A DNA stretch of 64,000 nucleotides from Heterodontus francisci. Its lineage: Eukaryota. The notes under the pieces were generated by a model. It saw only the letters and a list, made by a program, of their open reading frames with translations. It was not told where the DNA came from and did not search any database. The DNA is taken from contig NC_090400.1 of the NCBI RefSeq assembly GCF_036365525.1, forward strand, positions 59,425,633 to 59,489,632. Reading direction: 5' to 3'. The position numbers and the translations under genes are program-made. Numbering within the stretch: position 1 is the stretch's first letter; each line of letters begins with the position of its first letter. Of the stretch, positions 2,965-64,000 are shown in pieces.

Positions 2965-4200
2965 ACCTGTGTCTTACCTGTCCTGGGAGTGTTTGATGGG
3001 GACAGTGTAGAGGGAGCTTTACTCTGTATCTAACCCCGTACTGTACCTGTCCTGGGAGTGTTTGATGGGGACAGTGTAGAGGGAGCTTTACTCTGTATCT
3101 AACCCGGTACTGTACCTGTCCTGGGAGTGTTTGATGGGGACAGTGTAGAGGGAGCTTTACTCTGTATCTAACCCCGTACTGTACCTGTCCTGGGAGTGTT
3201 TGATGGGGACAGTGTAGAGGGAGCTTTACTCTGTATCTAACCCGGTACTGTACCTGTCCTGGGAGTGTTTGATGGGGACAGTGTAGAGGGAGCTTTACTC
3301 TGTATCTAACCCCGTACTGTACCTGTCCTGGGAGTGTTTGATGGGGACAGTGTAGAGGGAGCTTTACTCTGTATCTAACCCCGTACTGTACCTGTCCTGG
3401 GAGTGTTTGATGGGGACAGTGTAGAGGGAGATTTACTCTGTATCTAACCCCATTTATTTTTCTTTTTTTATCACAATGTGTGAAATCAAACAACCCCATG
3501 TAAGGACAGCATAACCTATCTGATGAGAAAGCAATTGACTCTGCTCAGGAATTATGTTAGTCTCCCAGGAGCAGACCCTATCATCATATCATTACCCACG
3601 CCATTCTTGTTACCTCTCAAGCTGAAGCATTAAATTTGGTCTGACCAGGGAGTGCTGAATAGAGAACAGCAGAAAGAGCTTTACTCTGCAACAAATCTGT
3701 TTTTTTTTTAAATGTAGAAGGAGCTTTACTCTGTGCTGAGTAACCTTTTTTTTTCTTTCCAGGCTCCTTTTATATCTTTTATGTCGAGTGAGCCTTTATT
3801 CCTCAGGCCCCTGTTATATACGTATTTTTAAAATAACTTTATTAAAAACAGATAAATAAGCAAAAAAAATGCAACGAATCTGTGTTGTAACTGTTCTGGG
3901 AGTGTTAGGACAGTGTCGATGGAGCTTTACTCTGTATCTAAACCCGTTTTGTTTTGTCGACAGCTTTACTCTAACCCCTTTTTTTTTCTGTGTAATCTGA
4001 ATTTAGACAGTTTTACCCTGTATTTAACCCCGTGCTCTACCTGTCCTGGGAGTGTTTGATGGGGACAGTGTAAAGGGAGCTTTAAAATGAGAACAGAAAG
4101 TGCTGGAAATACTCAGCAGGTCTGGCCGCATCTGTGTAGAGAGGGATCTTTATCTAACCCTGTGCTCTACAAGCCCTGGAGTGTTTGATAGGACATTATA
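2965..4200 (-). repeat. 69-bp tandem repeat array: ~7 clean units to 3451, then degenerate units interrupted by A-tailed inserts
   Basis: Unit CTGTACCTGTCCTGGGAGTGTTTGATGGGGACAGTGTAGAGGGAGCTTTACTCTGTATCTAACCCCGTA. Confidence 0.95.
3775..3872 (-). mobile_element. 3'-UTR stub of the same Tx1 family
   Basis: Reverse complement matches 27450-27540 (TTATTTATCTG..GGGGCCTGAGGAATAAAGGC..TCGACATAA). Confidence 0.85.
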
Positions 4201-6721
4201 GAGTGATATAAAATTCTTAAGGGGCTTGCTCGGGTAGAGGCTGTTTTCCCTGACTGAAGAGTTTAGAACTAGGGGGTCTTAGTTTCTGGATAAGTGGTCG
4301 GCCATTTAGGTACGGAGAATGTCTTCACTGAGGGTTGTGGATCTTTGGAATTCTCTACCTCAGAGAGCTGTGGATGCTCAGTCATTGAATATATTCAAGA
4401 CAGGAATCGATAGATTTTTGGATTTAAGGAAATTAATGGATATGGTGAAAGTGGAGTTGTGGTAGAAGATCAGCTGTGACCCTATTGAATGATAGAACAG
4501 GCTTGAAGGGCCGAATGGGCTAATCCAGCTCCTATTTGTGATTGTGTAGTTGGCCTTCAGCCGAGTGTTAAACTTCACAGACTTGCTGAGGTCAACATTA
4601 CTGCAGGATCCTGTTTGTATTTTCTCGTAAATAAAAAAAGGTGGGTCTTCCAGCAGCTGAGAAACACTGTTTATGTATGAACAATGTGAATTCTTCTGTC
4701 AGAGTTTTACTTTCGGAGGGGCTGTTCCGCTTTTGGAGTTGGTGTGTCACGCTGTACTGTCCTCACAAAGCACCATTCTGTTTCAGGCAGTGGCCAGAGA
4801 TCGAAACAGCAGATCTGGCCTGCAGAGTATTGGCTGTCTGATTCTGCTGTTGATATATCTTGGGTGCAGGTGTAGCCCCTCAATCTTGAGATGACCTATC
4901 CTTCTATACACCGTGCAGACTGGCTGTGGGTCATCAGATTATAAGTTTGTTCCTTACTTTGTCAGGAGTAGTGAGGGGCATCTCCAGACTGGTACAAGGA
5001 CAAGGTCACCCAGTCCCATGGAAATACTGCACAATGCACTCTCTGTGGCATTGATAAAACAGTCTGAGGCTGCGGTTAGGGTTCGGGGTAGCAGACCTGA
5101 TCTTCAAACAGGAATGCACGTTTATATTTATCTATTATTTACATACACAATTGTGACTATTTTTGGAAGAATCTGCACTCTTCCGTCGTCTCTCCTTCCT
5201 GTTTCTTCTGTTATCAGAGTTGTCTGGTGCAATACCAGCTTCTGAGTAAAGCGCTAAGTTCCCTGAGTGAAGCTGCCACACAGCAGAGGTGACATTTACA
5301 CCCATGCTGCAGTGATATTAAATGTCACAGCCTAGTGTGGTCCAATAGAAATTGCTGGCGAGCTCCAGGTGAGGTGACGGCGACACTGTTTTAACCACAA
5401 GTATTAATTTTAGTAGAGAACGTCTGTGCTCTGGAGCTTAAATGTCCTTCATGTGTTTATTTACTTAACAAACATCTTTCACCATTCAGTAACCAAGGAA
5501 ATAAACCACACCCAACAAAGAAAGACTTGCATTTCTGTAGCACCTTTCACGGCCTCTGCATTTCAAAGAGTTTCAGTTAATGAAGCCTTTTTTTTTTGAA
5601 GTGTAGTCATTGTTGCAATGTAGGAAACACAGCAGCCAGTTTGCGCACAGCAAGCTCCCACAAACAGCAATGTGATAAATGACCAGATAATTTAGGTGTT
5701 AGTTGAAGAGTAAATCTTGGCCAGGACTCTGAGGAGCGCACCCCTGCACCTCTTTGGAAAATAGTGACCGTGGGATCGTGTTGGGCCGCCAGAGAGGCAG
5801 ACTAGTCTCAGTTTACCGTCTCATGAGAAAGACGGTACTTGTGACCGTGCAGCATTCCCTCAGTACTGGGACTGTCAGGCCCAGATTATGTGCTCAGGTC
5901 TCGAGTGAGGCTTGAACCCACGGCTTTGAGACTTGTGTGAGACTGCCACGCACTGAAACACAGCTGATGCCTAAGAAATCAGAGAAAAAAGCTCGGTCTA
6001 TTTTACGTTTACCAACAAACGTACGGCAAGGTTAAAGTTCGGATGCATACGCCGTGGGGATGAGTATATTATGCGTATAGGGATCACATGTCCCTATTGC
6101 CAGTGTTGTGTGTGAAGTGGGGTGATACCTGAGGGTACATCGACCTTGTTTTAGAGGGTGGGGTTCACCCAGAGACATCTCTGTTCCCTCTGCACTTGCT
6201 TTCCTGGAATACTTCCTGATACTAAAGAAATGATGCACAATGGTTTGACTAGCTAGGAGCAAGTTTATAAATTAGGAAGGCGGGAGCACAGTCAGGTGAA
6301 ACCATTCCTGCTAACTGGCAATCTTGTTGTGCCCTGCAACATCCCAGGTTTTTGAGTGTGTTATAGAGTGATTATAGACCAGGAGGTCCTCAGTGACTGT
6401 AGATTAGGGAGTGGAAAATTGACTGATTCCTGTTCCTGATTGCTATTGCATAATACTCTGCTGGCAAATTCTCAGACTGTATGGGCAGACTGGGTGAGAG
6501 CTAGATTGAACTTGGCATGTGATGCTTCCCACAGTCAAATAGCCTGCTTGACAGTTACTTTCCAGACACACTCATCAATAAGGCCATTTGAGCAACGTGC
6601 TGGAGGGCAGCTGCAGCCTGCAGAGACTGCACCCCCCAACACCGTCCTAGAGGATAGGTGACTGGAATGAGAGGGAGTTTACCTCACCTCTGCTGGGGCT
6701 CTTTATTCTAAAAAAGGGGAG

Positions 6722-16775: not shown

Positions 16776-19580
16776 GATAGAGTCTAACCAGAGCTTGGAG
16801 TAACTAAAGCATAACTGGTTCCCTGTTCATTGTCTATTCTGGGTCTTCCAACCCCATTATGATGAGGATAAATGTTTATCTGGGAGGGAATCTTGAGGAG
16901 TGGATTGGTGAAAGAAAAGGAACTTTTTGAAGCCAAAACTCGATGGTATGTTTAATCTAGGGGACAGGAGACAGCTTATTTTCCCTGCTGGTAATCCTTT
17001 ATCTTTATATAACCCAAGAAACATTCCAGTGTCTGAGTTATATAATAAACTATCCCCTTCTGAGCATGCTTGTGTGGTATTTATGATTAGAGCTCTGCTC
17101 TTTTCCTTGCTGTATCACAAGCCTGTAATGAGTCCACAGTCCACTGTATAATGTCAAAACCTTACAGTGTAGTAAAATTGTAGGAGTGAGTATAGCACAG
17201 GACTCACTGACCCACTTTGAGACCAGCCTGTGGCAGCTGGGCTGAGTTAGTAGCTCATCTTGTCCATTCTGAGCATCTGTAATTCTCCTTCAACGTGCCG
17301 ATTGTTCAGTCGTTCTGCACTGGGAGATTTCAACCTGCTTTCCTACCCGTCCAGTAATAATACAGGCTATTGGCATCTCATGAAATATTTGAGCCAATCA
17401 AGTAGAAGTGTGATGGGCACTAGACGGGAAGCTGATTTAAAGACGCAGGTTTTATTTAAATAATCATGAAATTGTCACCTGAGGGTGTGGGGGTGTGGAA
17501 CTGAATCATAGAATGTTACAGCACTGACTCTGGCCATTCGGCCCATTGTGGTTGCACTGGCTGTTTGAAAGAGCTATCTAATTAGCCCCACTGCCCTGCT
17601 CTTTCCCCATAGCCCTGGAAATCTTTGATAGTCTGGAGATAGCGTGAGGGGTGATCCAGTCATAACTTCTGAGATGTCAATGACCTTTTACAACAGTAAG
17701 TGTGAGCAAGCTTCTATACAGCATCTTATCCTGTCCTCCAGACATCCCAATTAGTTTGACATTTATTGAATTATTTTTGAAGTCCAGATATCATTGTTAT
17801 GTACTGGCCAATTTGCACACCAAGGTTCCACAAAACAGCCGATTAGATCAATGAGCAGTTCATTTGTTCTTGGTGGTAATGAGAGATGGTTATTGGCCAG
17901 GACACAGATGGGCTAACTCGGCTATTACCTCTAGTTAGGGCAGTATCATTCTACAGCCTGGTGCTCATTGCATTGGAATCAAGAAGGACTTGTGAAATTT
18001 ACACACATTCGCCACTAAAATCCTTGACTTCATCAGAATGGATATAAAGGCTGAGTCCAATCCCTCCAACAGTGTCCACTCCTGTTTGGACGAGTGTGTA
18101 TATACACATTTCCCTACATTGCAATAGTGACTACTCTTCAAAAAGTTCTTCATTGGATGTAAAGTGCTTTGAGACATCTTGAGATTGTGAAAGACGTAGA
18201 CGTTTGTTCTTGGTGTACAGGTGGATGCACCTATGCCTGACTAGGCAAAATCGTCACCCAAAGCTGATGGTGAGGGAGGAAATGTAAATCCATCCCTCTG
18301 TCTAAAGCACTGCCTGTCTGGTCAACCGACATAATGCATTGTGGTGTTTACTATCTTTAGAGATGCAGTCTATGTTTCCCGTGTTGCGTGTATTGTATTA
18401 CTCAGACTGACTGACGGAGTGCACGTCCCTGATTTTAATTGCTCTAGCCTTAATGATCATGACTTCAACCACCTAGCCTCTAAACTCAACTTCCTTCCCA
18501 CACCCCACCCCTCCAATAAGTTGCTTCTTAAAATCTTCCTCATTATCCAAGCTTTTGGTCACCTTCCCTGATATCAGTTAATCGTATATCTATGGCCCCT
18601 CAGTCATGACTGCTCGCCAATGGAAACAGTCTGCTATCTTCCCTGTTCCATCCTGTCATAATTTAAAACACTTCCATCCTATCGCCCCATGATCTGCATT
18701 ATTCTGACAGAAAAAAGATGCAATCTTTCAGGTCTCTCTTCAGAGTTGTATTTCCACTTATCAGACAGCATCCTAGTGGATCTGTGCTGCACCCTCTCTA
18801 AAGCTTCTATATCCATCCTGTAGTGTAGGGCCCAGTCCTGCAAGTTACTTACTGACATGGGTGTGGAATGTAACTCATCCAGTGAAATGGACAATATTTA
18901 GCACTTTTGAGAGACCAAATTATTGTTCTTCCTGCCCTGAAAATGCTTTCTACTTCAAACGTTGAATGACTGCTAGCACTTCAGTCACTTTGTATTACCT
19001 TAGACAGTGAATGTCACCAGGCTATTTAAGTGAGGGTGGCATCACAACTAAACTCCTTTTTGTCCTTGCTCAACACGTACACTTTCCAGTTCGGATCACT
19101 GGATGGGGTTCAGGAGAGGGCACTGTCCTTTACAGCACTCCTTTGGCCTCCAAAAGATTTTGCACAGTAATTTGGTTTGGTGCTTAAGAAATAGCTCCTC
19201 CATACATCATATTACCAGGTTGAATGCCCCTGTTTCCAGTTGTGGTAAATAGTTCTTTGTTCTGAGCCATGTGTGTACAACAAACAAATCAGTCCTGCCT
19301 TATTCGAGCAGAGAGCCGTCATCTAATATGGATATTGGATCAAACTTCCTCTGCCTCTAATACCATTGGCACTGAAATGGAGAGTTCAGACTGTGGCTGT
19401 GGGGACATGTGACAAATACATGTTTTTCTGTTTTAAGAAACCGTTGTGATTCTCACTGATTAAATGACATGTCAGTTATATGTGCTGAAAAAGCAGAGGT
19501 TTTGTTTTGCTCTGTGCCTGTCAAGGTGATTGAACACTCCCAGGTTGGGTTCAGCATGGGTTAGATACAGAGCAGTGATT

Positions 19581-19875
19581 GGCGGTGCCGAGGGAGCGCC
19601 GCGCTGTCGGGGGGGGGGGGGGGCGGTGCCGAGGGAGCGCCGCGCTGTCGGGGGGGGGGGGGCGGTGCCGAGGGAGCGCCGCGCTGTCGGGGGGGGGGGG
19701 GGGGGCGGTGCCGAGGGAGCGCCGCGCTGTCGGGGGGGGGCGGTGCCGAGGGAGCGCCGCGCTGTCGGGGGGGGCGGTGCCGAGGGAGCGCCACGCTGTC
19801 GGGGGGGGCGGTGCCGAGGGAGCGCCGCGCTGTCGGGGGGGGCGGTGCCAAGGGAGCGCTGCACTGTCGGGGGGG
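19581..19875 (+). repeat. GC-rich minisatellite (8 units of GGCGGTGCCGAGGGAGCGCCGCGCTGTC + variable G-run)
   Basis: Direct tandem units, continuing into DeuSINE sequence. Confidence 0.92.
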
Positions 19876-21160: not shown

Positions 21161-21602
21161 GTTAGATACAGAGTAAAGCTCCCTCTACACTGTCCCATCA
21201 AACACTCCCAGGACAGGTACAGCACGGGGTTAGATACAGAGTAAAGCTCCCTCTACACTGTCCCCATCAAACACTCCCAGGACAGGTACAGTACGGGGTT
21301 AGATACAGAGTAAAGCTCCCTCTACACTGTCCCCATCAAACACTCCCAGGACAGGTACAGCACGGGGTTAGATACAGAGTAAAGCTCCCTCTACACTGTC
21401 CCCATCAAACACTCCCAGGACAGGTACAGCACGGGGTTAGATACAGAGTAAAGCTCCCTCTACACTGTCCCATCAAACACTCCCAGGACAGGTACAGCAC
21501 GGGGTTAGATACAGAGTAAAGCTCCCTCTACACTGTCCCCATCAAACACTCCCAGGACAGGTACAGCACGGGGTTAGATACAGAGTAAAGCTCCCTCTAC
21601 AC
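21161..21602 (+). repeat. 68/69-bp repeat array (~6.5 units) upstream of Tx1
   Basis: Same unit, opposite orientation to the 3 kb array. Confidence 0.95.
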
Positions 21603-21621
21603 AAGAGAAAAGGAAAAAAAA

Positions 21622-24600
21622 CGGGGGTTGGCTGCTCTCTGGGAATCCTGAGTGCCTCAACAAGATGCAGCTGACAGTGCTGCAGACAGTTGCTGGAGGT
21701 GCTGCTGGATAGGGAGAGCTGAGGAAAGAACTGCAACATTTTCAGCAACTTTTGCTGCAGAGGAGGAAAAGACTTTGGAATAAGGCTGTGTTTCAAGTTG
21801 GGTGTTGAGCACCAGACTTTTATTTCATTTGGACTGTTGTGGGAGGTAGAAGAGGCCGGAACAACAAGGGATGGGGACTGTACAATTCTACAGGGAGCTG
21901 TGCAATTGCATTGACTACACAAGGAAGCTCCCTCCCCACCCCTATAGCCCAGCCTGGGTCAGCTGAAGCTGCCTGGCTATAGAGACCGAAGGATCTAGCT
22001 AGTGCCTGGGCAGTTTTCGGCTGACCCAGATGAAGACCTCTCTCACAACCAGAAGACCAGGAGTGTTTACAGTGCTCTGTGTACCACCCTTCAAGGAAAA
22101 TAGCGTAGCAAAGTCATCGCTTGCAGCCTGTCTTTCCCCTTTCCTGTATACCCTCAGCCTCTCCCCAAACCTACTACTTGTTTGGACATTATTTCTTGGA
22201 AAATTTTGTTTTTGCCTGCAATTTGGTGGTGGGTTTGGCTCTTGAACCCGTGGCAAACCCATCATCACCGGTCGCAGTCCCGCTCAGTCTTTGGAAAAAC
22301 AGCCTCCGGTACGTCTATTCCTTCCACCACCAGCTATTTATGCAGCTGGCGCGGGAGGAGGTCACAGATGGCCATTTCATGATGGTCTACCGCGTCTTCT
22401 GGACCTCGGACGGGGTGCGGTGCCATGTCTGCAAGGGGAGGGGTACGTTAGTAAGAACTGCCCAAACCTCCCAGCTGCCAACTCCACCTCGATGGTCCAG
22501 GGTGGTGCCACTACACCACCTCCCATTCCCCCTACACCTTCAACAGACACCATTCTGTAGGTTCCAGAGGCTGTGGTTTTCACTGCCTCCGGCGGGGAGG
22601 GAAGTGCCCGTCCGAGTGGAAGGAGGACGCGGAAGAAAAATAGACCACAAGAGGCACGTCCCCTGGACACCATGGCACAGCCTGAGCTCAGCCCAAGGCC
22701 CGCTCCTGGGGAATCCACCTGCCCCAAGGCTGGGCTCAGGCCCAGGGTGACCGGGCAAAAGGATGGTGCAGAGGCCCCTGATGACATGAAGGTCTCTGAG
22801 CCTCCACGCCCCTCCCGAAATAAGAGGAGACGTCCCTGTTCTGAAGAAGGCCCTAAACCATGTGGTCCATCTCCTAGCATGGGTCCGCAACTCCCCTGCC
22901 ACCAGCACGAGCAGGGCCTCGAGCCCTGGGCGGGAACCCTCCACCTCTCGGAGCGGAGTGGGGGGGAGATGCCCCTGTAATCTTGTCAACTGGGGACCCG
23001 CCCTTGGTGGGGGGAGCTTGTGGACTCCACGGAAAAAATCATTCCTTTTGCCGATGGGTCGGGTGGCCTGGGTGGGGGTGAGACCTGTGAGGGTCTGCCC
23101 TCCCAGCAGCCTGACGCTACCGCCCAGGCTGTACCTGACCCGGAGGCCAATTTGTGTAATTCCCTGTCTGCTGGGTCTGTGGGCACTGATGGGGCAGGAG
23201 ATGGCATCCTTTCTCCGCCTCAGGTCCCAGCTCCGGCTGGATTTCCAGAGTCGGGTACTTCCATCTCCCCTGGACTGCTCATTGACCTGGGGACGGAAAT
23301 GGAGGGAGTTCCTGAACCGCTGGCGCCCATAGGCTCCAGTTCCATTCTAGAACCTAGAGAGGACTCTGCCATCGATCCTGGGGGTGGGAACGTGACGGAG
23401 GCGGGACCAGCTGGGGCGTCTGCCCACAGTGTGTGGTGGGTGTGTCAGCCGCTGGCGGTGACGACCCGGAGGAGGATGGGGACTCAGTGTGGGGCACGGA
23501 GGACGATCTTGATTCCATCGTCAGTGAGGTGGTGGAGTCCCTCGTGCCTCCCACCGAGTCTCCTTTCAAACCCACAGCAGAACTCCGGGATTTCCTCGTG
23601 GCATGCAGGGGTTGCCACAGTAAAGCTCAGCTGGCCCTCGACCGTTGGTCGAATCTGGCGCTGATCATCCAGTCCGTCCATGCCGCCCTCAAGGAAGCGG
23701 GCAAGGGTGCGGGCGTGAAACTGGTTGAGAGGCACTGATTTAGTGCGTTCCTCAATGGGTTGCTGGGGGGAGTGGAGGGCCAGGTGCACTTCCACTCCCT
23801 CCTCACAGTGAGGTGTTAGTGACGGTTTTTAAGTACCTTTGACGTGAAGATAACCATAGCCAGCCTCAACATCAATGGCAGCAGGGGGTCTCACCGCAGA
23901 TTTCACAATCTCTCAGTCCTCGGGGAAGGGAGATATGCAGTGAACTTTCTGCAGGAAATCCACACTGTTCCAGGAGATGAAGCCACCTGGCTCCTGGAGT
24001 GGCAGGGTAGGGTCTACATGAGTCACCTCACTCCGATTTCTAGTGGGATGGCTATCTTGTTGGCCCTGACTTTTCAGCCGGAGATCTTTGGGGTCAAGGA
24101 GCTCGTGCCGAGCGGCTTGCTCCACCTCGCCGTTCGCCTGGGTAGCGTGCCGCTCCACTTTGTGAACGTGTACATGCCCAGGTCCAGCGCGTTGCAAGCG
24201 CACTTCTTTGAAGAAGTGTCCACTCTCTTGAGCTCCATCGATAGCGGCGAGTGCATCATCCTTGGGGGAGATTTTAACTGTACCCTCGAGATGGGGGATT
24301 GTTCCGGTCCCCAGCGCGGCCAAGCGTTGGTGGAGAAGTTGAGGGAACTGATCAGCTCCCTTAGCGTGATGGACGTCTGGCGGAATCTCCATCCCGACTC
24401 CAGCGCCTTTACATGGAGGTCTGGAAGAGGAGGGTCCCGAATCGACCGCCTCTCCATTTTGCAGGCGCACGTCTCCCACGTCCTGGCAACCTCCATGTGG
24501 CTGGTGCCGTGCTCGGACCACCATTTGAAATGCGTGGCGTTTACTCCGCTCCGCACGCGGGCGGGGTCCGCATACTGGTACTTTAACAACCGGCTGCTGG

Positions 24601-27542
24601 AGGACGAGCGATTCTGGGACTCGTTCTTACGATGCTGGGCTGACTGGAGAAGGAAGCAGGGGGGCTTCCCCTCCTTGAGGCTATGGTAGGATGTTGGCAA
24701 GACTGACATCCGTGTCTTCTGTCAGGAGTGCACAAGGGGGTTGACCAAGAGGTGGGAGGCCGTGATCGGGCGCCCAGAGAGGGAGGTGCTTGACTTGGAG
24801 TCCCGCCTCAGTCATGCCGTCGCGGACCCGGCCCTGTGGCAGGCATATAAAGAGAAGAAGGGCATGCTGAGGGACCTGCAGCTCATAGGGTCCCGAGGCA
24901 CATACGTGAGGTCGTGGATCCAGATCCTGGAAGATTTGGACCGCGCCTCACCCTTCAACTCGCTGGAAACATGGCGGGGGGTCCGTGAGCAGCTCGTTGA
25001 GCTGCTGGACGACAACGGATTCTCCATCATGCATCCAGAGGGAATGGACCTCCTGGTCCGTACTTATTACAGTGCATTGTTCTCTCCGGATCCGTTCACG
25101 TTGGCGGAGCTGACCGGCGCCCTCCACCAGCTCTCGAGGGGCAAATCTCCGGGGCTGGAAGGGCTGACTGTGGAGTTCGTCAGGGCATTCTGGGACGTCC
25201 TGGGGGACGATTTGGCGTGGGTCCTGGGGGAACGAACGCCTGGCGCCCGGGGAGATGCCCCTCTCGTGGCGCAGGGCGGTCATCATCTTGCTGCCGAAGA
25301 GGGGTGATCTCCGCTTGCTTAAAAACTGGCGTTCGGTCTCCTACCTCAGTATGGATTATAAGATCTTTGCCCGGGCTATGTCTACCCGCCTGGGCTCTGT
25401 GCTGGCCCACATGATCCACCCCGACCAGTCCTACATGTTCCCGGGCTGGTCCATCAAGGACAACATTCACCTGGTCTGGGACGTGATCCATCTTTCTCGA
25501 TCAGGAGAAGGCGTTCGACAGGGAGAATCATGAATACCTTCTCGGGACTCTGCGCGCTTTCGGACTTGGGCAGCATTTTGTGGCCCGGGTCTGACTTTTA
25601 TACGCCGCCGCAGAGTATCTAGTCGAAGTTAACGGGTCCTTGATGGCGCCAATTTGCTTTGGGAGAGGAGTGTTTCAGGGGTGCGCCATATCCGGCCAAT
25701 CGTATACCATCTGCGTGGAGCTGTTCCTGTGCCTGCTTCGCAGGAGGTTGACTGGATTGGCTCTGCGCGAGCTGGCCATGCGGGTCATCCTCTCGGCTTA
25801 CGTAGATGACGTGCTCCTCGCAATCACAGATCCTGTTGACTTGTGGAGAATGCGCGACTGCTAGCAGACCTTTTCTTCTGCGTCCTCAGCGAGGATCAGT
25901 AGGGAGAAATGTTCTGGTCTCCTGGTGGGTCAGTGGCGGGTGCACTCCCTACTGGAGGGGTTAAGACGTTTTGCGTGGAACACCACGCACCTCCTCTATA
26001 TGAGAGTCCACCTTAGCCCTGCTGAGGAAGCCTGGCCGGCAAACTGGCAGGAGTTGGAGATGAAAGTCACCACTTGGCTGGGGAGCTGGACAGGACTGCT
26101 CTGAGTGCTTTACTACAGGGGCCGAGCGCTGGTCATAAACCAACTGATGGCCTCCATGCTGTGGTACCGGTTGGTCACTTTGGCCCCGCCCCCTGCATTG
26201 GCCACCAAGATCCAGAAGAAGCTCGTTAATTTCTTTTGGAGCAAGAGGAAACACTGGGTCTCTGCCGCAGTCCTGAGTCTCCCGGTTGAGGAGGGCGGCC
26301 AGTCGCTGGTGTGCGTCCGCACCCAGGCTGCAACTCTCAATCTTCGGACCCTGCAGAGATACCTGTACATCGAGTGTCCTCCCAGATGGTGTGCACTGGC
26401 GACTTATTTCTTCCACCAGTGTCACTGCCTTCAAGACGACACGCAGCTCGAGGCAGTGAACGTTAGCCGTGCCTCTCTGAGGCAGTTGCCTGCCTCTTAC
26501 TGGGATCTATTCTGGAGTCTGGAACATGGTCGCCTCCAGTCAGGGCGCTCCCCCGCCAGCGGAGGAGAGTGCCTCAGCTGTCCAGGTGGCTGGCTCCGGG
26601 GACGGACTGGCGGGCGGAGGAGTAGCCGAAGCCCCCGGAACGCCCCTCACTGTGGGTGACGAGGGGGCTCGGGAGCACAGAGTGCTCCCAGCCAAGCTGA
26701 CCCCCCGCTCGGCCGCAACTACTCTTTGGACTCAGGCCCTGAAACCCTCCTCTGAAGCCGGTCCCGTACAACCCGAACAGCCTCTCGGAAATGCCCTCCG
26801 TGCCGTTCCAAACAGCGCGGAGGGGTTTCCTGTACGGGCTGCTCCTGCACACTCTCCACTTCCTCGCCCTTGTCAGCCGGCTGGACATGCCCGGGGGTCC
26901 GTGTCACCATCTGGCGGCGAAGGGAAACCCTGATGGAGGTCTCTCTATGCGGGAGTCCTCCCCCTTTGCATCAGGGACCTGGGGTGGAGGGTGCTGCACG
27001 GTGCAGTCCAGGGCAATAGAATTTTAAGCAGGTTCATGGACTCCCAGGCCACCTGTAACTTCTGCGGCCTGGACGAGTCCGTGTTACATGTGTGTATGGA
27101 GCGTGTGTGGTTGCAGCCCCTCTTTGAGTATTTGAAGGGGCTGCACTCCAGCCCCACGCTCTTGATCTTTGGGCACCCGGTGCGGAGGGGCGTGGGCCGG
27201 GAGGAGGATCTCCTCGTTGGTCTGCTCCTGGGCCTGTCCAAGGTGGCAATTCACAGGACCAGGCTGCGGGGCCATCGTGGGGTATGACCTGCCTGTTTGC
27301 CTGCCCCTCTTCCGAGGTTACGTTCATGCCCAAGTGTCCCTGGAGAAGGAGCATGCGGTGTCCACTGGTACGCTTGAGTCCTTTCGCGACTGGTGGGCAC
27401 CGCAGGGACTGGAGTGCATAATTGACGCCGAGAAAGCAGTTTTAATTTGAGTTTTTGATTTATTTATCTGTTTAATAAATTTATTTAAAAATGTATATAA
27501 AGGGGGCCTGAGGAATAAAGGCCCCCTCGACATAAGAAAAAA
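21622..27542 (+). mobile_element. Near full-length decayed Tx1-clade non-LTR retrotransposon inserted in the 69-bp repeat
   Basis: ORF1 remnant with zinc knuckle CHVCKG..YVSKNC; ORF2 APE endonuclease from 23844 (SLNING, GGDFN, SRIDR, SDH), RT (KSPGLEG, DYKIFA, QEKAFD, AYVDD), C-terminal CNFC..H; stops and frameshifts; 3' UTR and A-tail. Confidence 0.92.
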
Positions 27543-28230
27543 CAGGGTTAGACACAGAGTAAAGCTCCCGCTACACTGTCCCCATCAAACACTCCCAGGA
27601 CAGGTACAGTACGGGGGTTAAATACAGAGTAAAGCTCCCTCTACACTGTCTCCAACAAACACTCCCAGAAAGAGAAAAAAAAAACGGGGTTAGATACAGA
27701 GTAAAGTTCCCTCTACACTGTCCCCATCAAACACTCCCAGGACAGGTACAGTACGGGGGTTAAATACAGAGTAAAGCTCCCTCTACACTGTCTCCAACAA
27801 ACACTCCCAGAAAGAGAAAAAAAAAACAGGGTTAGATACAGAGTAAAATTCCCTCTACACTGTCCCCATCAAACACTCCCAGGACAGGTACAGTACAGAG
27901 GTTAGATACAGAGAAAAAAAAACGGGATTAGATACAGAGTAAAGCTCCCTCTACACTGTCCCCCATCAAACACTCCCAGGGCAGGTACAGTACGGGGGTT
28001 AGATAAAGAGTAAAGCTCCCTCTACACTGTCCCCCATCAAACACTCCCAAGACAGGTAGAGTATGGGGGTTAGATACAGAGTAAAGCTCCCTCCACACTG
28101 TCCCCATCAAACACTCCCAGGACAGGTACAGCACAGGGTTAGATACAGAGTAAAGCTCCCTCTACACTGTCCCCCATCAAACACTAAAAAAAAAACGGGT
28201 TAGATACAGAGTAAAGCTCCCGCTACACTG
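27543..28230 (+). repeat. 69-bp repeat array downstream of Tx1 with four A-tract scars
   Basis: Units interrupted by A-tracts directly before C(G/A)GG..TTAGATAC. Confidence 0.95.
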
Positions 28231-28920
28231 CATAGCAGTTCCAACATGTGAAATTTTATTGAAATTGCTTTTCCCAGTCTGCAGTGCCTGTATGCAAGTG
28301 ATAACATTTTTTGGTGGGTGAATTAATAATGACTGATTGGGATTAGAGTTGTCTCATATGCTGGCCTGTATGATTGTGTTCATCAGGTACTCTCCGTAAA
28401 GCTAGTTATGTTGCCACCTTGAAATCCGTTTTTCTGATTAGTGTAGCTCCAGTTGCAAGTCTGGCTTTAGCTTCTAATAACATTAACCTGATCCCTAAAC
28501 CCCTCCGACTTACTGCAGCTCAGTCCCTAAATAGAACCATTGTCAGAGGTCGCAATTGATTGTATAATTTATATTTCATTGCACAGTGAACCAAATTTCC
28601 CTTGCATTTGCTATTAAGTGTGTATGGTTAGTCTGCTGGCTGTCTAATCTGAACTGCAGTGAGCTGGGATTGTAGTTCCCAGTGGGAATCAGCACACTGC
28701 ATTGCCCTGAATCTGATACTGAATCACTAACTTGTTCAGAAAGCATTCATGATGGGTCATGAAAATGTCACCCAGGAGCAGTAATAGTGCTTTTCAAGGT
28801 TAGGGTTGGGCCTCATTAAGATCGCGTAGAGTTCTCCCAACTCTATCTAACCCGTGCTGTGCCTACCCTGGGAGTGTTTGGAGACAGTGTAGAGGGAGCT
28901 TTATTCTGTATCTAACCCTG

Positions 28921-29290
<370 letters not shown>

Positions 29291-29449
29291 TTACTCTGTA
29301 TCTAACCCTGTGCTGTACCTGTCCTGGGAGTGTTTGATGGGGACAGTGTAGAGGGAGCTTTACTCTGTATCTAATCCCCGTGCTGTACCTGTCCTGGGAG
29401 TGTTTGATGGGGACAGTGTAGCGGGAGCTTAGCTCTGTATCTAACCCCG

Positions 29450-29739
29450 TTTTTTTTTAACTTTGCAAAACCTAGCTTTATTTGTCGTGTAGATACACCG
29501 ACAGTTTATGCAGTGCTGGAGGAAGCCATTGCGGCGCGTCTGGGCTTCGGGGTGGTCCCTTCACGGAATCCATTCCTGAATCTGCGATACACCACCTTCA
29601 GGTGCCTCATGCGGCCTGTACCAGTTGTGTTTCTCCTTTTGGCTTTAGTACTCCAGTTGTACTTCCTCTTTCTCTCGGCAGGGTAGGCATATTTACCACA
29701 GGTCGATTTCTGCAGGTGAAATGCTTTGGCCCCACACCG
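29450..29739 (-). pseudogene. RPL37: 5'-truncated processed pseudogene of 60S ribosomal protein L37 (eL37)
   Basis: Minus strand reads [77 protein letters not shown]; intronless, AATAAA 29477-82, A-tail. Confidence 0.96.
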
Positions 29740-31354
29740 TGCTGTACCTGTCCTGGGGAGTGTTTGATGGGGACAGTGTAGAGGGAGCTTAACTCTCTAT
29801 CTAACCCAGTGCTGTACCTGTCCTGGGAGTGGGAATTTCAGTGGGCAAAATATGCCTATTTAAGGAAAGAATTATATTTCACCGTGAGAAAATGTTATCT
29901 AGTCTTGAATGTAAGCCTGAATGTGTTTCCCAGGATTTCCACAGTGCCTTTTCCTGACTCTCCTGAAAGGGAGAGCTTGGCCTGGCACTACTTTCGGCAA
30001 AATATCTAAACCTGCAGTAGACAGGCCTCTGGTCCTGAAAGCGAAGATCTGGATTTATATGGGACCTTAACCCAAAACAATCCAAACCTTGTTGGATGGA
30101 GAATTCCTTTGCTCTGTGGTCACTGTTATGTAAGTGAGATCCCACAAACAGCAACACATCAGTTGATCTCTTTTGCTCTTCCTTGGTGATGTGGTTGAGG
30201 GACAAATATTTGGGTAGTGGGAGAACTCCCTACTTCTCTTTGAATCATGTCACATAATCTTTACTTCCCACTGACGGATCCTGGATTTACTGTCCAATCT
30301 GAAGGATGATTGGAGTTCTTTGGGTACAGTGTTTTTCCGTGAATTCAGTAGCTATAAATATTTCCTTTGTACCTGGTTGACCTTGCAGTATCGCGATGCT
30401 GTCACAAACTCCTGCAGCTTAAGGATCACTCCTTACGACCAGCTGTGCACCGACCATATTCCAATACTGTGGAATCCCACTGGATTATAAGTACTTTCTG
30501 CTTTCCGAGTCGCTTATCTTTTCTTTCTCACCTGATGGCACCCTGCCGTTGCTGGGGTGCCTTTTCATGGGGACCAGCCCTGACCCAAGAGGCTATTCTT
30601 TGGATCTAGCTGTTGAAGCTCAGTCCAGTGCTATCTTGCCCAGTGCTTCCACTTGCATGCACCGGTGCTTGCCCAAAGATTGAACTTTCTGATGTATTTT
30701 GATGTGGGTAATGTATTTACTGAGGCTTTGGGGAAGTTGGCTATATAATATTGATATCTTGCAGGTTATGAGCAGCTCCTGCTGGCTAGCTAACGTCAAC
30801 CATGGATTTGGGGGCAGCGCTCTCTTTCCCGTCTGTCAGAAGCCCCACTCCAGAGACTTGAGTACATAAGCCAGGTTGACACTCCCAGCACCAGTACTGA
30901 GGGACTGCTGCATTATAGGAGGCACTGTCCTTAGGATGAGATGTTAAACCGAGATCCCGTCTGCCCTGTCAGTTGGAAATAAAAATAAATTCTGTGGCAG
31001 CATTTAAAGAATAGGGGAGTTCTTCCTGGTGTCCTGACCAATGTTTATCCAACAACCAAAATCACAAACAGATAATCTGGTCATTATCACATTGGTGTTC
31101 ATGGGAGCTTGCTGTGCACAAATTGGTTGCCACATTTCCTAATTACAACAGTGATTTCAAAAAGTACTTCATTTGCTGTAAAGCACTTTGGGACATTCTG
31201 AAATAGCAAAAGACGCTACAGAAATAAGAGTTATTTTTTTCTTTAGCCCAATGCAAAATATCAGTCTTGTTGCGTGGTCTATTGACCTCTGAATGTTTCT
31301 GTACAAGGCAGTGGTGTGTGTGCTGGGGAGCCCAGGAATCTTAAGTCAAAGTAG

Positions 31355-40045: not shown

Positions 40046-40705
40046 AGACCTGTCCCCACCAGTACTGTACCCCAGTCTTGTACAGTGACAGACCTGTCCC
40101 CACCAGTACTGTACCCCAGTCTTGTACAGTGACAGACCTGTCCCCACCAGTACTGTACCCCAGTCTTGTACAGTGACAGACCTGTCCCCACCAGTACTGT
40201 ACCCCAGTGTTATACAGTGACAGACCTGTCCCCACCAGTACTGTACCAGTGTTATACAGTGACAGACCTGTCCCCACCAGTACTGTACCCCAGTGTTATA
40301 CAGTGACAGACCTGTCCCCACCAGTACTGTACCCCAGTGTTATACAGTCAGACCTGTCCCCACCAGTACTGTACCCCAGTGTTACAGTGACAGACCTGTC
40401 CCCACCAGTACTGTACCCCAGTGTTATACAGTGACAGACCTGTCCCCACCAGTACTGTACCCCAGTCTTGTACAGTGACACCTGTCCCCACCAGTACTGT
40501 ACCCCAGTGTTATACAGTGACAGACCTGTCCCCACCAGTACTGTACCAGTGTTATACAGTGACAGACCTGTCCCCACCAGTACTGTACCCCAGTGTTATA
40601 CAGTGACAGACCTGTCCCCACCAGTACTGTACCCCAGTGTTATGCAGTGAAGCACCTGTCCTCACCGGTAGTGTACCCATTTTGCAGTAACCGACCTGTC
40701 CCCCA
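40046..40705 (+). repeat. 44-bp minisatellite (~14 units) in PITP intron 6
   Basis: Unit GACAGACCTGTCCCCACCAGTACTGTACCCCAGTGTTATACAGT. Confidence 0.95.
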
Positions 40706-43629: not shown

Positions 43630-44008
43630 TGTTAGATGCAGAGTAAAGCTCCCACTACACTGTTCCCATCAAATACTCCCAGGACATGTACAGCACGGGG
43701 TTGGATGCAGAGTGGAACTCCCTCTGCACTGTCCCCATCAAACACTCCCAGGACGGGTATAGCACGGGGGTTAAATACAGAGTAAAGCTCCCTCTACACT
43801 GTCCCCATCAAACACTCCCAGGACAGGTACAGCACTGGGTTAGATACAGAGTAAAGCTCCCTCTACACTGTCCCCATCAAACACTCCCAGGACAGGTACA
43901 GCACGGGGGTTAGATACAGAATAAAGCTCCCTCTACACTGTCCCCATCAAACACTCCCAGGACAGGTACAGCACGGGGTTAGATACAGAGTAAAGCTCCC
44001 TCTACACT
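43630..44008 (+). repeat. Uninterrupted 69-bp repeat array (~5.5 units) in PITP intron 8
   Basis: Same unit, no inserts. Confidence 0.93.
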
Positions 44009-49429: not shown

Positions 49430-52400
49430 TGCTGACCACAAGAGGAACTTGGAGTGGGAGGGGGAGGATCCAGTTGTCGTGGTCCACGTAGGTACCAACG
49501 ACATAGATAGGACTAGGAAAGAGGTTCTGTTGAGGGTCTATGAGCAGCTTGGGGCTAAATTAAAAAGCAGAACCTCAAAGGTAATACTGTCTGGATTACT
49601 ACCTGAGCCATGTGCAAATTGGCATAGGGTAAATAGATTAGAGAGGTAAACGTGACGCTCAAAGATTGTTGTAGGAGAAATGGGTTCCAATTCATGGAGC
49701 ACTGGCACCAGTACTGGGGAAGGAGAGAACTGTTCTGTTGGGACGGGCTTCATTTGAACCATGCTGGGGCCAGTGTCCTGGCGAATCATATAACTAGGGT
49801 TGTAGATAAAGCTTTAAACTAAATAGTGAGGGGGAGGGTTCAATTGAAGGGAAGTTTATAAAATCAAAAAGAAACGAGAGAGCAGAGGTGCAGGGTAGTG
49901 ACGAGGCGAACGTTAATCAAAGTGTGACAGGAAGGGGCAGAAAATATAAGCAGAAGAGTGCAGCAGAAATCAGAACCAGGATGAGTAATAATGGTAAAAA
50001 GTCAAAGCTTCAGGCTCTTTATCTGAATGCACGCAGCATTTGTAACTGGATAGATGAGTTGACAGCACAAATAGAAATAAATGAATATGACTTGATAGCT
50101 ATTACAGAGATGTGGTTGCAGGGTGACCAAGACTGGGAACTCAATATTCCAGGGTATTCGACGTTCTGGAAAAATAAACAAAAAGGAAAAGGAGGTGGGG
50201 TAGCTTTGTTAATAAAGGAAGGTATCAGTGTGTTGGTGAGTAGTGATATAGGTGCAATAGATTGTGATGTGGAATCAATTTGGGTGAAAATAAGGAATAG
50301 CATGGGGGTGGTAGTCACAGGTGGGAGTGGTCTATAGGTCCCTGAAGTGTTGCCTTTCTGTAGGATAAAGTATAAATCAGAAAATAACGGAAGCGTGTAA
50401 GAAGGGCACTACAATTGTCATGGGTGATTTTAATCTGCATATAGACTCGACAATCAGATTGGCAGAGGTAACATGGAAGACAAATTTGTAGAGTGCATCA
50501 GGGATCGTTACTTAGAGCAATACGTTGCAGAACCTACCCAGGAAACAAGCTATTTTAGATCTAGTAGTGTGTAATGAGGTCGGATTAATAAGAGATATCG
50601 TAGTTAAGGATCCTCTAGGTGGTAGCAATCACAACATAGTAGAATATCAAATTCAGTTTGAGGGCGAGCAACTCTGGTCTTAAACCAGTGTCTTCAACTT
50701 AAACAAGGGCAATTACAAAGGTATGAAGAAAGAGTTGTCTAAAGTGGGCTGGGAAAATAGACTAAGGGGAAGGTCAGTGGATGAGCAGTGGCAGACAGTT
50801 AAGCAGATATTTCATAAAGCTCAGCAAAAATTTATCCTGGTCAAAAAGAAGCACTCAATGAGAAGGATGAACCACCCGTGGTTAACAAAGGCGGTCAAGG
50901 AGAGTATCCAATCAAAAACTAAGGCATACAAAGCAGCGAAAACTAGTGGTAGGCCAGAGGATTGGGAATTTTTTAGGAACCAGTAGCGGATGACTAAAAA
51001 GCTAATAAAGAGGGAGAAAATTGATTATGAAAATAAATTGGCAAGAAATATAAAAACAAACAGCAAGAACTTCTACGGGTATATAAAAAGAGAGTAGTTA
51101 AAGTGAGCGTGGGACCCTTGGAGGATGTGACTAGAGAATTGGTAATGGGGAACAGGGAAATGGCAGATAATTTAAACCAATATTTTCCATCAGTCTTCAC
51201 GGTGGAGGACACTATAAACATCCCACATATATCAGATAAGCAAGGAGCTAATGGGAGGAAAGATCTTGTAACAGTCTCTGTCACGAGGGACAAAGTATTT
51301 GACAAACTAATGGGACTAAAGGCAGACAAGTCGCCAGGACCTGATGGCCTACATCCAAGGGTTTTAAAGGAAGTGGCTGCAGAGATAGTGGAGGCATTGG
51401 TCGAAATATTCCAGAACTCACTGGATTCCGGGAGGGTCCCAGCGGATTGGAAAACCGCTAATGTGACACCCCTGTTCAGGAAGGGAGGGAGACTAAAAGC
51501 AGGAAACTATAGGCCAGTCAGCCTAGCATCGGTCGTTGAGAAAATGCTAGAGTCCATTATTAAGGAAAAAATAGCAGGACATTTCGAAAAGCTTAACGCA
51601 ATCGAACAGAGTCAACATGGTTTTGTGAAAGGGAAATCATGTTTGACAAATTTGCTAGAGTTCTTTGAGGATATAACAAGCAGAGTTGATAAAGGGGAAT
51701 CGGTAGATGTCGTGTATTTAGATTTCCAGAAGGCATTCGATAAGGTGCCACATAAAAGATTATTGCGCAAGATGGGAGTTCACGGTATTGGGGGTAATGT
51801 ATTAGCATGGATTGAGGATTGATTAACTCACAGAAGACAGAGTCGGGATTAATGGATCTTTTTCAGGTTGGAAAGATGTAACTAGTGGAGTGCCACAAGG
51901 ATCAGTCCTCGGGCCTCAATTATTTACTATCTATATTAATGACTTGGAGGAGGGGGCAGAGTGTAATATATCCAAATTTGCTGACGATACAAAAATAGGT
52001 GGAAGGGCATGTTGTGATGAGGACATAAGGAATCTGCAAGGGGATATAGATAGGTTGAGTAAGTGGGCAAAAACTTGGCTGATGGAGTTTAATGTAGGAA
52101 AGTGTGAGGTCATGCACTTTGGTAGGAAGAATCAAAAGGCAGACTATTATTTAAATGGAGAGAGACTTCAAATAAGTGCAGCACAGAGGGATCTGGGTGT
52201 TCTTGTGCATAAAACGCAAACAGCATGCAGGTGCAGCAAGTAACTAAGAAGGCAAATGGAATTTTGGCCTTTATTGCTAAGGGGTTGGAGTTTGAAAATA
52301 GGGAAGTCTTGTTACAACTGTACAAGGGTGTTGGTGAGGCTGCACCTGGAGTACTGTGTACAGTTTTAGTCCCCGTATTTATGGAAGGATATACTGGCAT

Positions 52401-59133: not shown

Positions 59134-59268
59134 GTGTCAATTTCTTGCTACTTTGTGTCAATTTCTTGCTACTTTGTGTCAATTTCTTGCTACTCTGTGT
59201 CAATTTCTTGCTACTTTGTGTCAATTTCTTGCTACTTTGTGTCAATGTCTTGCTACTTTGTGTCAATC
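59134..59268 (+). repeat. 21-bp minisatellite (~6 units)
   Basis: Unit TGTGTCAATTTCTTGCTACTT. Confidence 0.93.
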
Positions 59269-61499: not shown

Positions 61500-61670
61500 C
61501 ATCAAACACTCCTGTGCTGTACCTGCCCTGAGGTTAGATACAGAGTAAAGTTCCCTCTACACTGTCCCCATCAAACACTCCCAGGACAGGTACAGTACGG
61601 GGTTAGATACAGAGTAAAGCTCCCTCTACACTGTCCCCATCAAACACTCCCAGGACAGGTACAGCACGGG
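61500..61670 (+). repeat. Short 69-bp repeat array preceding the second Tx1
   Basis: About 2 units plus a rearranged fragment. Confidence 0.9.
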
Positions 61671-64000
61671 ATTGGCTGGGCAATTTGGAGCACTTCCTGC
61701 CAGCAATCAGGGGGCGCGGCTGCATCTGTGCTGCAGCAACTGGAGAGTGGAGAGTGGAGAGTGGAGACTGGAAACTGCAGCAACTGGGGAGAGAGACTGG
61801 AGAAAGGTGAATACAGAGTGGAGACTGCAGCAACTGGGGAGAGGAGAGTGGAATAACTGCAAAGAGGTGACTGTAGAGTGGAGACAGCTGCATTTACTGA
61901 GGAACTGTTGCACTTTTTCAAGGATTAAGAAGACCTGCAAGTCATTTTGGAGAGGTGGGTGTTGGAGCACCAGAGAACTGTTGGTTGTTTGGACTGTTGG
62001 GGGAGGGAGGAGGCACCGGAAGATCCAGGGGTGGGGCTGCCAAATTCGATAGGGCGCCCTTGTATTTGGTCTTGTGTTTATCTGCCATCCTGCACAAAAG
62101 GGGCTCCCTCCCCACCCCCAACTATGTGGCTCGGGACGGCTGGAGCTGCCCGGCTGAAGACTATCTTTATACAACAACAGAAAAGGGAGAGAACCGGACG
62201 GCTCTAGCCGACCCGGGCGAAGAGCCCTCCCCTAACTGGGAGATTGAACTGTAGACTCTGCAGGAAGGTGCTCCAACCACCAAGTGAACTGTAACATCCT
62301 CGCAGCTGTTCTCTCTCTTCCATCACTCGGCCACCTATCCTCTCCTCTCCTTGTCCTTTTCAGCCCTATCCTCCTCTACTCCCATCCCCCCCTCCCCCAT
62401 CATATTGTTTGTGTTTAAGAAAACTGTCGTGTGCTTTGTTTCTTGGGGGTGGGCGTAGCTCTGCGACCCCATGGCAAGCCCCTCTTCGCCGGTGGCGGGG
62501 CCTTCCCATTCATATGCTGCTGCGGCTGCTGCAGCTGCACCTGTTGCCCCGTCACCGTTTGCTTTATTAACATCAAAGCATGGGGTCAAAAGCTACGTCC
62601 ACCCGAACATGACTATCGAGGCATATGTGAAAGCAATGGCCGAGGTTGTCGGCCCTTCGGCCATTGTTGCAGCCTCTAAAATGTATGGGAAGGCAGTGTT
62701 TTTCCTGAAGACCGAGCGGGCGGTGTCCCTGGCTCTGAGCAAGGGGCTCACCGTGGGCGGGACCTTTCTGCCAGTGGACCCCCTGGAGGCCACTACGCAA
62801 AGGCTCATTCTATCCAATGTCCCGCCCTTCATTCCTGGTGAGCTCCTCCTTCCCCACCTGCACCATCTGGGGGAGGTAAAGATGGGACTCACCCCAGTCC
62901 CGCTCGGTCTTCGGGAGAACAGCCTCCGACACGTGTACTCCTTCCGCCGCCAGTTATTCATGCAGCTGGCGAGGGAGGAGGTTACAGAGGGCCACATTAA
63001 TGTCGAGTTCCAGGGGACGGCCTACCGCGTCTTCTGGACCTTGGACGGGGTGCGGTGCCATGTCTGTAAGGGGGTGGGGCATGTTCGTAAGAACTGCCCC
63101 AACCTCCCGGCTGCCAACTCCAACTCGGCGCACCAGGGTGGCGCCGCTGCACCTCCTCCCACCCCCCCCTACACCTCCACCAGATACCATTCAGTCGGTA
63201 CCGGAGGCTGTGGTTTTCACGGCCTCCGGCAGGGAGGGGGGTGACCGTCCAAGTGGAAGGAAGGCGCGGAGGAGGAATAAACATCAAGAGGCGCGTCCCC
63301 TGGACACCGTGACACTACCCGAGCCTGAGCTCAGCACAAAGCCCGATCTCGGGGAGTCAACTTGCCCCAGGGCTGGGCTCAGGCCCAGGGTGAATAAGAA
63401 AAAAGAGAGTGCGGAGGCCTCTGATGACATGGAGGTCTCTGAGCCTCTGCGCCCTGGTGGGAAAAAGAGGAGAAGGCACCCCTCCACAGAGGTAATCAGG
63501 GGCCCTGAGGCGCAGGGCCCATCTGTTGGAGGGGAGCTGTCTCCTGTCTCGGGTCCCCAGGTTTCCCCTACCGCCACCACCAAGGCTACAAAGTCCGGGC
63601 AGGAGCACCCTATTCCTCAGGATGGAGTGGAGGGGAAGGCCCCGGTACATGAGGCCCCTCCTGAAGGAGTAAGTGGGGCCCTGCTTGTGGTGGGGGAGCC
63701 TGGGGGCTCCGCCCATTCTGCCACTGCTACTGGTTCGGGTGCCCTGAGTGAAGGGGAGGGCGAGGCCCCAGAGGGTCGGCCCTCCCAGCCGGAGTCCACC
63801 ACCAACCAAGAGACACCCGACCCGGTTAGAACCGAAAATGCTGCCCCATCTGCTGGGCCTGTGGGTGCTGGCGGAGCAGGAGATGGCCTCCTCTCTCCGC
63901 CTCCAGTCTCGGCTCCGGCTGGTTTTCCGGAGTCGGGAACTTCTGTCTCCCCTGGACCACTCATTGGCCTGGGGACGGAGGTGGAGGGGGGTCCTGAACC
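61671..64000 (+). mobile_element. Second Tx1-clade LINE (5' UTR + ORF1 from 62471), cut by the window end
   Basis: Starts right after CAGCACGGG of the 69-bp repeat; ORF1 has an intact CX2CX4HX4C knuckle (CHVCKGVGHVRKNC); homologous to 22250-23315. Confidence 0.9.

Follow-up and report, generated by a model that had tools for sequence, protein, structure and literature searches.

Several units of a 69-bp minisatellite in the shark Heterodontus francisci are interrupted by short A-rich tracts, and the question raised by this locus is what placed them there. A reading of the DNA made without database searches (the sequence-only reading) had taken them for abortive retro-insertions that copied little more than a poly(A) tail by target-primed reverse transcription (TPRT), resolved with loss of target and so marked the position of the first-strand nick. 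The A-tracts are real, share one orientation and are not the result of slippage. The sequence evidence makes it likely that the minisatellite is the sequence-specific target of a Tx1-like retrotransposon which inserts its own RNA, mRNAs and tails by TPRT. The tail-only scars are a minor product; the notable feature of the locus is the site-exact capture of cellular mRNAs. All counts given here refer to one 64-kb window, the whole stretch of DNA analysed, whose positions are used throughout.

A 69-bp minisatellite on both strands of the window

The minisatellite occurs in about ten array blocks within the window, on both strands, and accounts for ~5% of its length (window G+C ~45%). Units are numbered from the C of C(G/A)GGGTTAG as phase 1, with 21294-21362 as the reference unit, which has AAA runs of its own at phases 19-21 and 45-47. 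The target junction reads ...ACAG(C/T)A / C(G/A)GGGTTAG and, across the eight well-kept blocks, is intact in 26 cases and occupied by a tail in 9.

2975..4206, minus strand: array cluster, with a young block at 2975-3451 and degenerate blocks up to 4206
21161..21602, plus strand: array upstream of a retroelement, homogeneous (98% matches)
27543..28230, plus strand: array downstream of the retroelement, with three independent tail-only events inside
28841..29831, minus strand: array in three blocks, split by RPL37 and RPL37A retrocopies
43631..44008, plus strand: array without an insertion, the empty-site reference
61532..61673, plus strand: array upstream of a second element

The arrays beginning at 21161, 43631 and 61532 start at phase 4-5 and those finishing at 28230 and 44008 stop at phase 35-36. 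Neither a tail nor an evident duplication of the flank is present at those ends, which hints at defined array ends and at a dispersal route for the minisatellite.

A-tracts share one orientation and one 3' junction

A scan of all ten repeat arrays (3,232 bp, with limits drawn to include edge tracts) returned 13 A-rich tracts on the sense strand of the unit and a single T-run, which lies inside a retroelement 3' UTR fragment and outside the repeat sequence. The tracts described in the sequence-only reading are present at 27669-27684, 27811-27826, 27914-27922, 28186-28195 and 21603-21621 (plus strand) and at 3987-3979, 3955-3947, 3758-3746 and 3709-3700 (minus strand), the one adjustment being that the tract given as 27911-22 starts at 27914, since 27911-27913 are target sequence. 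The constant 3' junction proposed there is borne out: the next repeat base after the tract is phase 1-4 in 13/13, and all 13 tracts end no more than 5 nt from one minisatellite position, although phases are less certain in the degenerate units at 3700-3987 (tracts 3987, 3758 and 3709).

Two of the tracts had been misassigned. Those at 27669 and 27811, counted as separate insertions, lie in units that match at all 73 nt and belong to a 142-bp duplication of the array 27543..28230 (3 differences in 142), and so represent one event; the 13 tracts thus correspond to 12 independent events, and the probability that 12 would all land by chance in the same 5 nt of a 69-nt unit is ~3e-13. The tract near 3745, taken for poly(A)-only, ends a 136-bp 3' piece of a retroelement. 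The tail-only events number seven.

27669..27684, plus strand: tail-only tract with AAGAG-like head; 5' join after phase 56, 13 nt of target missing
27811..27826, plus strand: copy of the 27669 tract made by the 142-bp duplication, no separate event
27914..27922, plus strand: tail-only tract; 5' join after phase 17, most simply a 17-bp target-site duplication
28186..28195, plus strand: tail-only tract; 5' join after phase 51, 18 nt missing
21603..21621, plus strand: tail-only tract; 5' join after phase 34, 13 nt past AGTAAA, followed by an 8-nt target remnant (21622-21629)
3700..3709, minus strand: tail-only tract, 15 nt past AGTAAA and 36 nt downstream of the tail of the 136-bp fragment
3947..3955, minus strand: tail-only tract in a degenerate unit; 5' join near phase 32
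3979..3987, minus strand: tail-only tract in a degenerate unit; 5' join near phase 15, placed by eye

Homopolymers are error-prone and the unit has AAA at 19-21 and 45-47, from which A-runs might have been expanded by replication slippage or sequencing error. Such expansion would keep the flanks and resume the repeat at phase 22 or 48, which 0/12 do. Random positions or both orientations within units, the pattern named beforehand as the mark of slippage, were looked for, and the tracts were found on one strand and in one phase window; the repeat sequence contains no T-run, the four other minisatellites of the window have no run of at least 6 A or T, and the same junction carries real mRNA copies (see below). 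Slippage was rejected on these grounds, and we consider its probability negligible.

A Tx1-like retroelement family occupies the site

Three copies of one non-LTR retroelement family were found in the window.

21630..27542, plus strand: decayed, near full-length Tx1-like non-LTR retrotransposon, 5.9 kb, with ~7-bp target duplication
61674..64000, plus strand: 5' part of a second element of the family, running off the window; joined after phase 7
3746..3881, minus strand: 136-bp piece of the family's 3' end, A-tailed and joined on its 5' side at phase 1-3

The 5.9-kb element comprises an ORF1 remnant and an ORF2 with an APE endonuclease, a reverse transcriptase (RT) and a weak zf-RVT, all interrupted by stops and frameshifts. 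In a Pfam scan of 29 ORF queries the endonuclease matched PF03372 (E 2e-11) and the RT pieces PF00078 (RVT_1; E 1e-5 and 2e-6, below cut-off because broken), and in tblastn the element is collinear with two 1,250-aa EN-RT proteins. The 5' end follows phases 1-7 and the A-tail, at 27534-27542, ends at phase 1. The closest solved structures to the endonuclease are L1 endonucleases, and its best relatives (4 matches from 3,880 candidates) come from Heterodontus francisci (82%) and Amblyraja radiata (66%), while the 30 matches of the family's ORF1 include Scyliorhinus torazame (63%), sturgeon and turtles. Among the protein matches of the element there is no named Tx1 reference protein, and it is for the endonuclease that relatedness to L1 is evident. 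ORF1, as retained in the second element, gave a weak zf-CCHC match (E 0.004, 17.6 bits, below the cut-off of 20.8) and no other Pfam match; an ORF1 with a CCHC knuckle, rather than the mammalian L1 ORF1 domain, is a feature of the Tx1 clade. Self-comparison revealed no terminal repeat and hence no LTRs, and A-tails are present at 27534-27542 and 3758-3746. The second element is 72% identical to the first over 1,125 bp; the 136-bp fragment is 86.5% identical over 89 bp to the 3' end of the long copy. By its domain content, the family appears to be Tx1-like, that is, L1-related with an APE endonuclease. Since the copies in the window are all decayed and only 72-87% alike, an active donor would lie outside the copies seen.

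All three of the copies in the window (3/3) sit at the minisatellite site, compared with the >20% of copies flanked by one repeat type that serves as a criterion of target preference (PMC4494074).

An AATAAA precedes the tail of the long element by 14 nt. In both copies that retain the 3' end (27502-27528, plus strand; 3790-3810, minus strand), this AATAAA forms part of the loop of a G/C hairpin that immediately precedes the tail, with 9 bp, -19.8 kcal/mol and z -3.9 in the long element and a weaker z of -1.8 in the second copy. The shorter copy also carries, at 3776-3746 (minus strand), ~23 extra bases that contain TATAAA and lie after a short A4 and before the main tail; these are absent from the long copy and suggest alternative 3' ends within the family. 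Other RT/endonuclease remnants at 1037-2002, 49810-50337 and 51037-51822, which we take to be CR1-like from their motifs, lie apart from the arrays.

Ribosomal protein mRNA retrocopies at the same junction

The junction also carries sequences unrelated to the element.

29450..29736, minus strand: RPL37 processed pseudogene, 5'-truncated, with residues 21-96, stop, 3' UTR, AATAAA and A-tail; 5' join at phase 3
28921..29257, minus strand: RPL37A processed pseudogene with one internal stop, 3' UTR, AATAAA and A-tail; 5' join after phase 53
3453..3648, minus strand: 196-bp insert with an A-rich tail at the common junction; 5' join after phase 54

The RPL37 copy matches PF01907 (E 1e-12) and aligns without gaps to residues 21-96 of vertebrate L37 (E 2e-41), with AATAAA 18 nt before its A-tail. 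The RPL37A copy matches positions 3-29 and 31-85 of PF01780 around its stop (E 8e-25 and 1e-11; protein match E 4e-35), has AATAAA 17 nt before its A-tail and lacks 16 nt of target. The start is absent from both copies. Their matched coding spans run on without introns, which vertebrate RPL37 and RPL37A parent genes would have there. The copies are 192 bp apart, with about three repeat units between them, and each has its own tail and target, indicating two events. The encoded L37 and L37a are both small zinc-binding 60S proteins, of similar name and unrelated; the RPL37 copy shows a Cys-to-Tyr change relative to solved vertebrate L37.

The 196-bp insert has no other copy in the window and no clear polyadenylation signal upstream of its A-rich end. 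No Rfam family was found anywhere in the window at gathering thresholds, and a search of 2900-4300 by E-value returned three chance matches only, so that neither the 69-bp unit nor the 196-bp insert corresponds to a known RNA.

In-register repeat lies on both sides of RPL37, RPL37A, the long element and its 3' piece. This bears on the converse arrangement, in which the repeat is the mobile part and inserts beside existing poly(A) tails, as its dispersal at ~10 places and the array blocks that often begin directly after an A-tract might suggest. Two-sided in-register flanks mean that the array preceded the inserts, and on that ground the idea was rejected. Both strands of the window hold 43 runs of at least 7 A, of which 12 are in or at arrays (one being the UTR T-run); the 31 outside have no 69-bp repeat beside them, which also counts against a mobile repeat and leaves it most unlikely, and 2/31 have AATAAA or ATTAAA upstream, so that further retrocopies may lie elsewhere in the window.

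A constant 3' junction common to the element and to unrelated mRNAs, together with the in-register flanks, argues for TPRT from a sequence-specific nick. TPRT at one site per unit, as first proposed, is thus upheld by the tail of an APE/RT element and by two mRNA retrocopies; the latter, which the sequence-only reading had not included, are the strongest evidence for it. Site-specific capture of cellular mRNA in this window is, we believe, very likely. The shared junction and the 3/3 copies at the site point to this element family as the source of the enzyme. Its endonuclease would nick the bottom strand once per unit, opposite the ...ACAG(C/T)A / C(G/A)GGGTTAG join, and the freed end would prime reverse transcription, beginning at the poly(A) tail, of any RNA bound by the protein. 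The cargo seen comprises its own RNA (two long copies and one 136-bp 3' piece), RPL37 and RPL37A mRNAs and perhaps the 196-bp insert, the remaining class being events that leave only a tail and no foreign sequence. The tail-only tracts would then be severely 5'-truncated TPRT events. The claim that they map the nick precisely holds to about 1 nt: the base before the junction, phase 69, is itself A, so the putative nick is placed to within 1 nt, not exactly.

The 5' joins are variable and clustered

On the 5' side, cargo is joined at phases 7, 7, 3, 1-3, 53 and 54 and the tail-only tracts at phases 34, 56, 17, 51, ~36, 32 and 15, some of them placed by eye where the alignment is poor. Variable as they are, the joins may be grouped into short duplications (phases 1-7), duplications of 15-17 bp, joins at phases 32-36 and deletions of 13-18 nt, and by nearest-neighbour distance they are clustered (p = 0.013 for all 13; 0.09 for tail-only joins alone). 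Joins at phase 7 or below make up 0/7 of the tail-only and 4/6 of the cargo set (Fisher p = 0.02, post hoc and with small n), and those at phases 10-40 make up 5/7 and 0/6 (Fisher p = 0.02, post hoc), three of the phases in these tests coming from degenerate sites. This post hoc difference counts against the tail-only tracts being the same kind of event as the cargo insertions.

The sequence-only reading had all of these tracts resolve with target deletion. That suits 28186 (18 nt) and 27669 (13 nt), whose losses resemble those of 15-16 nt at RPL37A and at the 196-bp insert: their joins at phases 51 and 56 share a band with phases 53 and 54 of that cargo. These two tracts fit abortive TPRT with target deletion. 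The tracts at 27914 (17 bp) and, probably, 3987 (15 bp) are more simply target-site duplications. Target deletion has no unique reading here, because in a tandem array the loss of 69-n and the duplication of n look the same.

The tail-only tracts might also be remnants of longer insertions, either shortened by deletions that began at varying points of the upstream array and ran into the tail or reduced by unequal exchange. Tandem arrays do rearrange, as the 142-bp duplication illustrates, the 136-bp element piece could be an incomplete deletion, and a constant 3' and variable 5' join would be predicted here too. Such deletions would, however, have to end inside a 10-20-nt tail in 7/13 cases without guiding homology, and the 5' joins are clustered (over all 13) and share a band with intact retrocopies, making this origin improbable.

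Repeat RNA as a possible cargo

That little more than the tail was copied agrees with the seven tail-only tracts, which contain nothing foreign besides the tail; a cDNA derived from the repeat would not show, and for the three tracts 11-15 nt after AGTAAA the claim is unproven. AGTAAA is a variant polyadenylation signal. Some tail-only tracts may accordingly end cDNAs of repeat RNA, polyadenylated after AGTAAA and inserted by the same enzyme at the same nick (3' transduction), the RNA coming from element read-through past the hairpin AATAAA or from transcribed arrays. The cargo would then be target sequence, hiding the real 5' join, and what looks like a deletion endpoint would be the cleavage site of the RNA.

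Of the seven tail-only tracts, three have an intact AGTAAA 11, 13 and 15 nt before their start, a spacing near the 14, 17 and 18 nt that follow AATAAA in the element, RPL37A and RPL37, and joins at phases 32-36, 11-15 nt past this signal, are exclusive to tail-only events. Pure poly(T) cDNA gives no joins at the unit's own AAA runs, which counts against joining of a tail-only cDNA. Two tails 36 nt apart at 3881-3700 have the layout used as a criterion for L1 3'-transduction candidates (10.1101/2024.08.27.596794), although two independent insertions would look alike. The hairpin around AATAAA could weaken that signal, but it is less stable in the second copy. Tail-only events fall, 7/7, in arrays that also hold an element copy, with none in 43631 or 28841-29831, a distribution confounded by age. 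Against this, 4/7 tracts misfit (30, 35, 63 and 65 nt after the hexamer), 22/69 phases would fall 9-30 nt after the hexamer by chance, and the tail-only clustering is not significant by itself. Orphan transductions would be needed for the three tracts located upstream of the element, two tracts (21603 and 27669) have an AAGAG head that resembles the start of the element's own tail, and the arrays at 43631 and 61532 have no tail at all, so that repeat RNA alone would not explain array dispersal. We regard this account as a real possibility, although we lean against it; it shares enzyme and nick with abortive TPRT, and if true the element copies its own target.

Relation to known systems

Tail-only insertions, Tx1 target specificity and SINE trans-mobilisation are already known. 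Tx1 families are often target-specific, satellites included, with duplications or truncations of the target, and Tx1-Mar was inferred to trans-mobilise SINEU into its own target, Mariner-N4, with an expected 16-bp duplication for SINEU-3 (PMC4494074). The present family resembles Xenopus Tx1, Keno, Kibi, Koshi and Tx1-Mar in its APE and RT, poly(A) tail and fixed position in a multicopy repeat, and target-specific Tx1 elements in that duplications and truncations of the target both occur; it differs in that the target is an elasmobranch 69-bp minisatellite, and its likeness to Tx1 is one of domain content, not of an RT tree. Like SINEU at the Tx1-Mar target, non-cognate poly(A) RNA is found at a Tx1 target, with tandem insertions sandwiching target sequence (PMC4494074). 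There the cargo is snRNA-derived SINEs with 13-90% target preference, whereas the minisatellite received protein-coding mRNA and bare tails at a single nucleotide position.

Human L1 is similar in its relaxed, tail-based choice of RNA, 5' truncation, poly(A)-only products and target duplications or deletions, but its site is a short degenerate TTTT/A found genome-wide rather than a G/C-rich repeat position. Solitary poly(A) tracts form 2% (157) of somatic L1 events (10.1101/2024.08.27.596794) and target deletions accompany 4% of human insertions (PMC12016303); tail-only events are 7/13 here against that 2%, an excess that weighs against the TPRT account proposed for the minisatellite, and deletions 4/13 against about 4-8%. 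The two tails flanking downstream sequence at 3881-3700, the second just past an alternative signal, recall L1 3' transduction, in which alternative signals set the transduction ends (10.1101/2024.08.27.596794), except that the transduced sequence would be the element's own target, leaving source and junction unreadable from one locus. R2 and SART1 likewise use TPRT at a fixed site in a multicopy repeat but need their own 3' UTR, whereas the minisatellite system took unrelated mRNAs (PMC4176376, PMC3747384); the 'TX1' of PMC4176376 is a construct name, irrelevant to the Tx1 clade.

The comparison also took in 10.1101/2025.06.08.657570, PMC5470649 and PMC2912911. In the accessible literature (most subscription papers and Repbase, in which the family may already have a name, lay outside the search) neither this minisatellite target nor mRNA retrocopies placed exactly at a Tx1 site were described.

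The enzymes behind non-mammalian retrocopies have mostly been argued for by correlation. A survey of 244 genomes counted 14,081 retrocopies in cartilaginous fishes and attributed them by correlation to the CR1 or Tx1 content of the genomes; its accessible portion does not consider insertion sites (10.64898/2026.06.26.734816). A fixed target is a signature by which a retrocopy can be assigned to a single element family. As a product class the tail-only scars are already known, and the neighbouring mRNA copies matter more. A site-specific element taking non-cognate poly(A) RNA would also contrast with R2-type tools that require their own 3' UTR. With the first nick held constant, thousands of identical target sites would make a natural set in which to study how TPRT completes its 5' join, a step still poorly understood. 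A broader picture, of an element exact on DNA and indifferent on RNA, with the repeat as the main sink of shark processed pseudogenes and a target that is lengthened and spread through read-through and re-insertion of repeat RNA, is as a whole doubtful.

Further features of the repeat

An exact 30-nt motif of the repeat had 0 matches in bacterial and archaeal genomes. Protein searches with the repeat's open frame returned 1 match and then 17; of the 8/17 inspected, two (P0006 and P0011) contain the repeat peptide, and no cargo fused to it was seen in those eight. P0011, a receptor-like predicted protein, includes ~30 residues translated from the 69-bp repeat, so that the repeat finds its way into gene predictions elsewhere. 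Joins at 17, 34 and 51 hinted at a 17-nt period within the unit, which was rejected: the best self-match, 25/69, equals the shuffle median.

An in-place inversion at 61513-61530 (plus strand) affects 18 bp of the unit, from phase 54 to phase 2. The ends of the inverted piece match the deletion band (53/54) and the putative nick site, but also short CCC/GGG inverted repeats that are possibly a sufficient cause. A second kind of insertion is seen at 4133-4085 (minus strand), where a 49-bp piece of an abundant dispersed repeat (at least 7 other matches in the window) lies within a 69-bp unit, between duplicated phases 18-34 and without a tail; its ends, at 17/18 and 34/35, are bands of tail-only joins. 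The four other minisatellites of the window, at 40046-40703, 53150-53767, 19581-19875 and 59134-59267 (units of 44, 33, 34 and 21 bp), have no A-tract inserts, and a degenerate 69-bp fragment (19533-19572) immediately precedes the 34-bp one.
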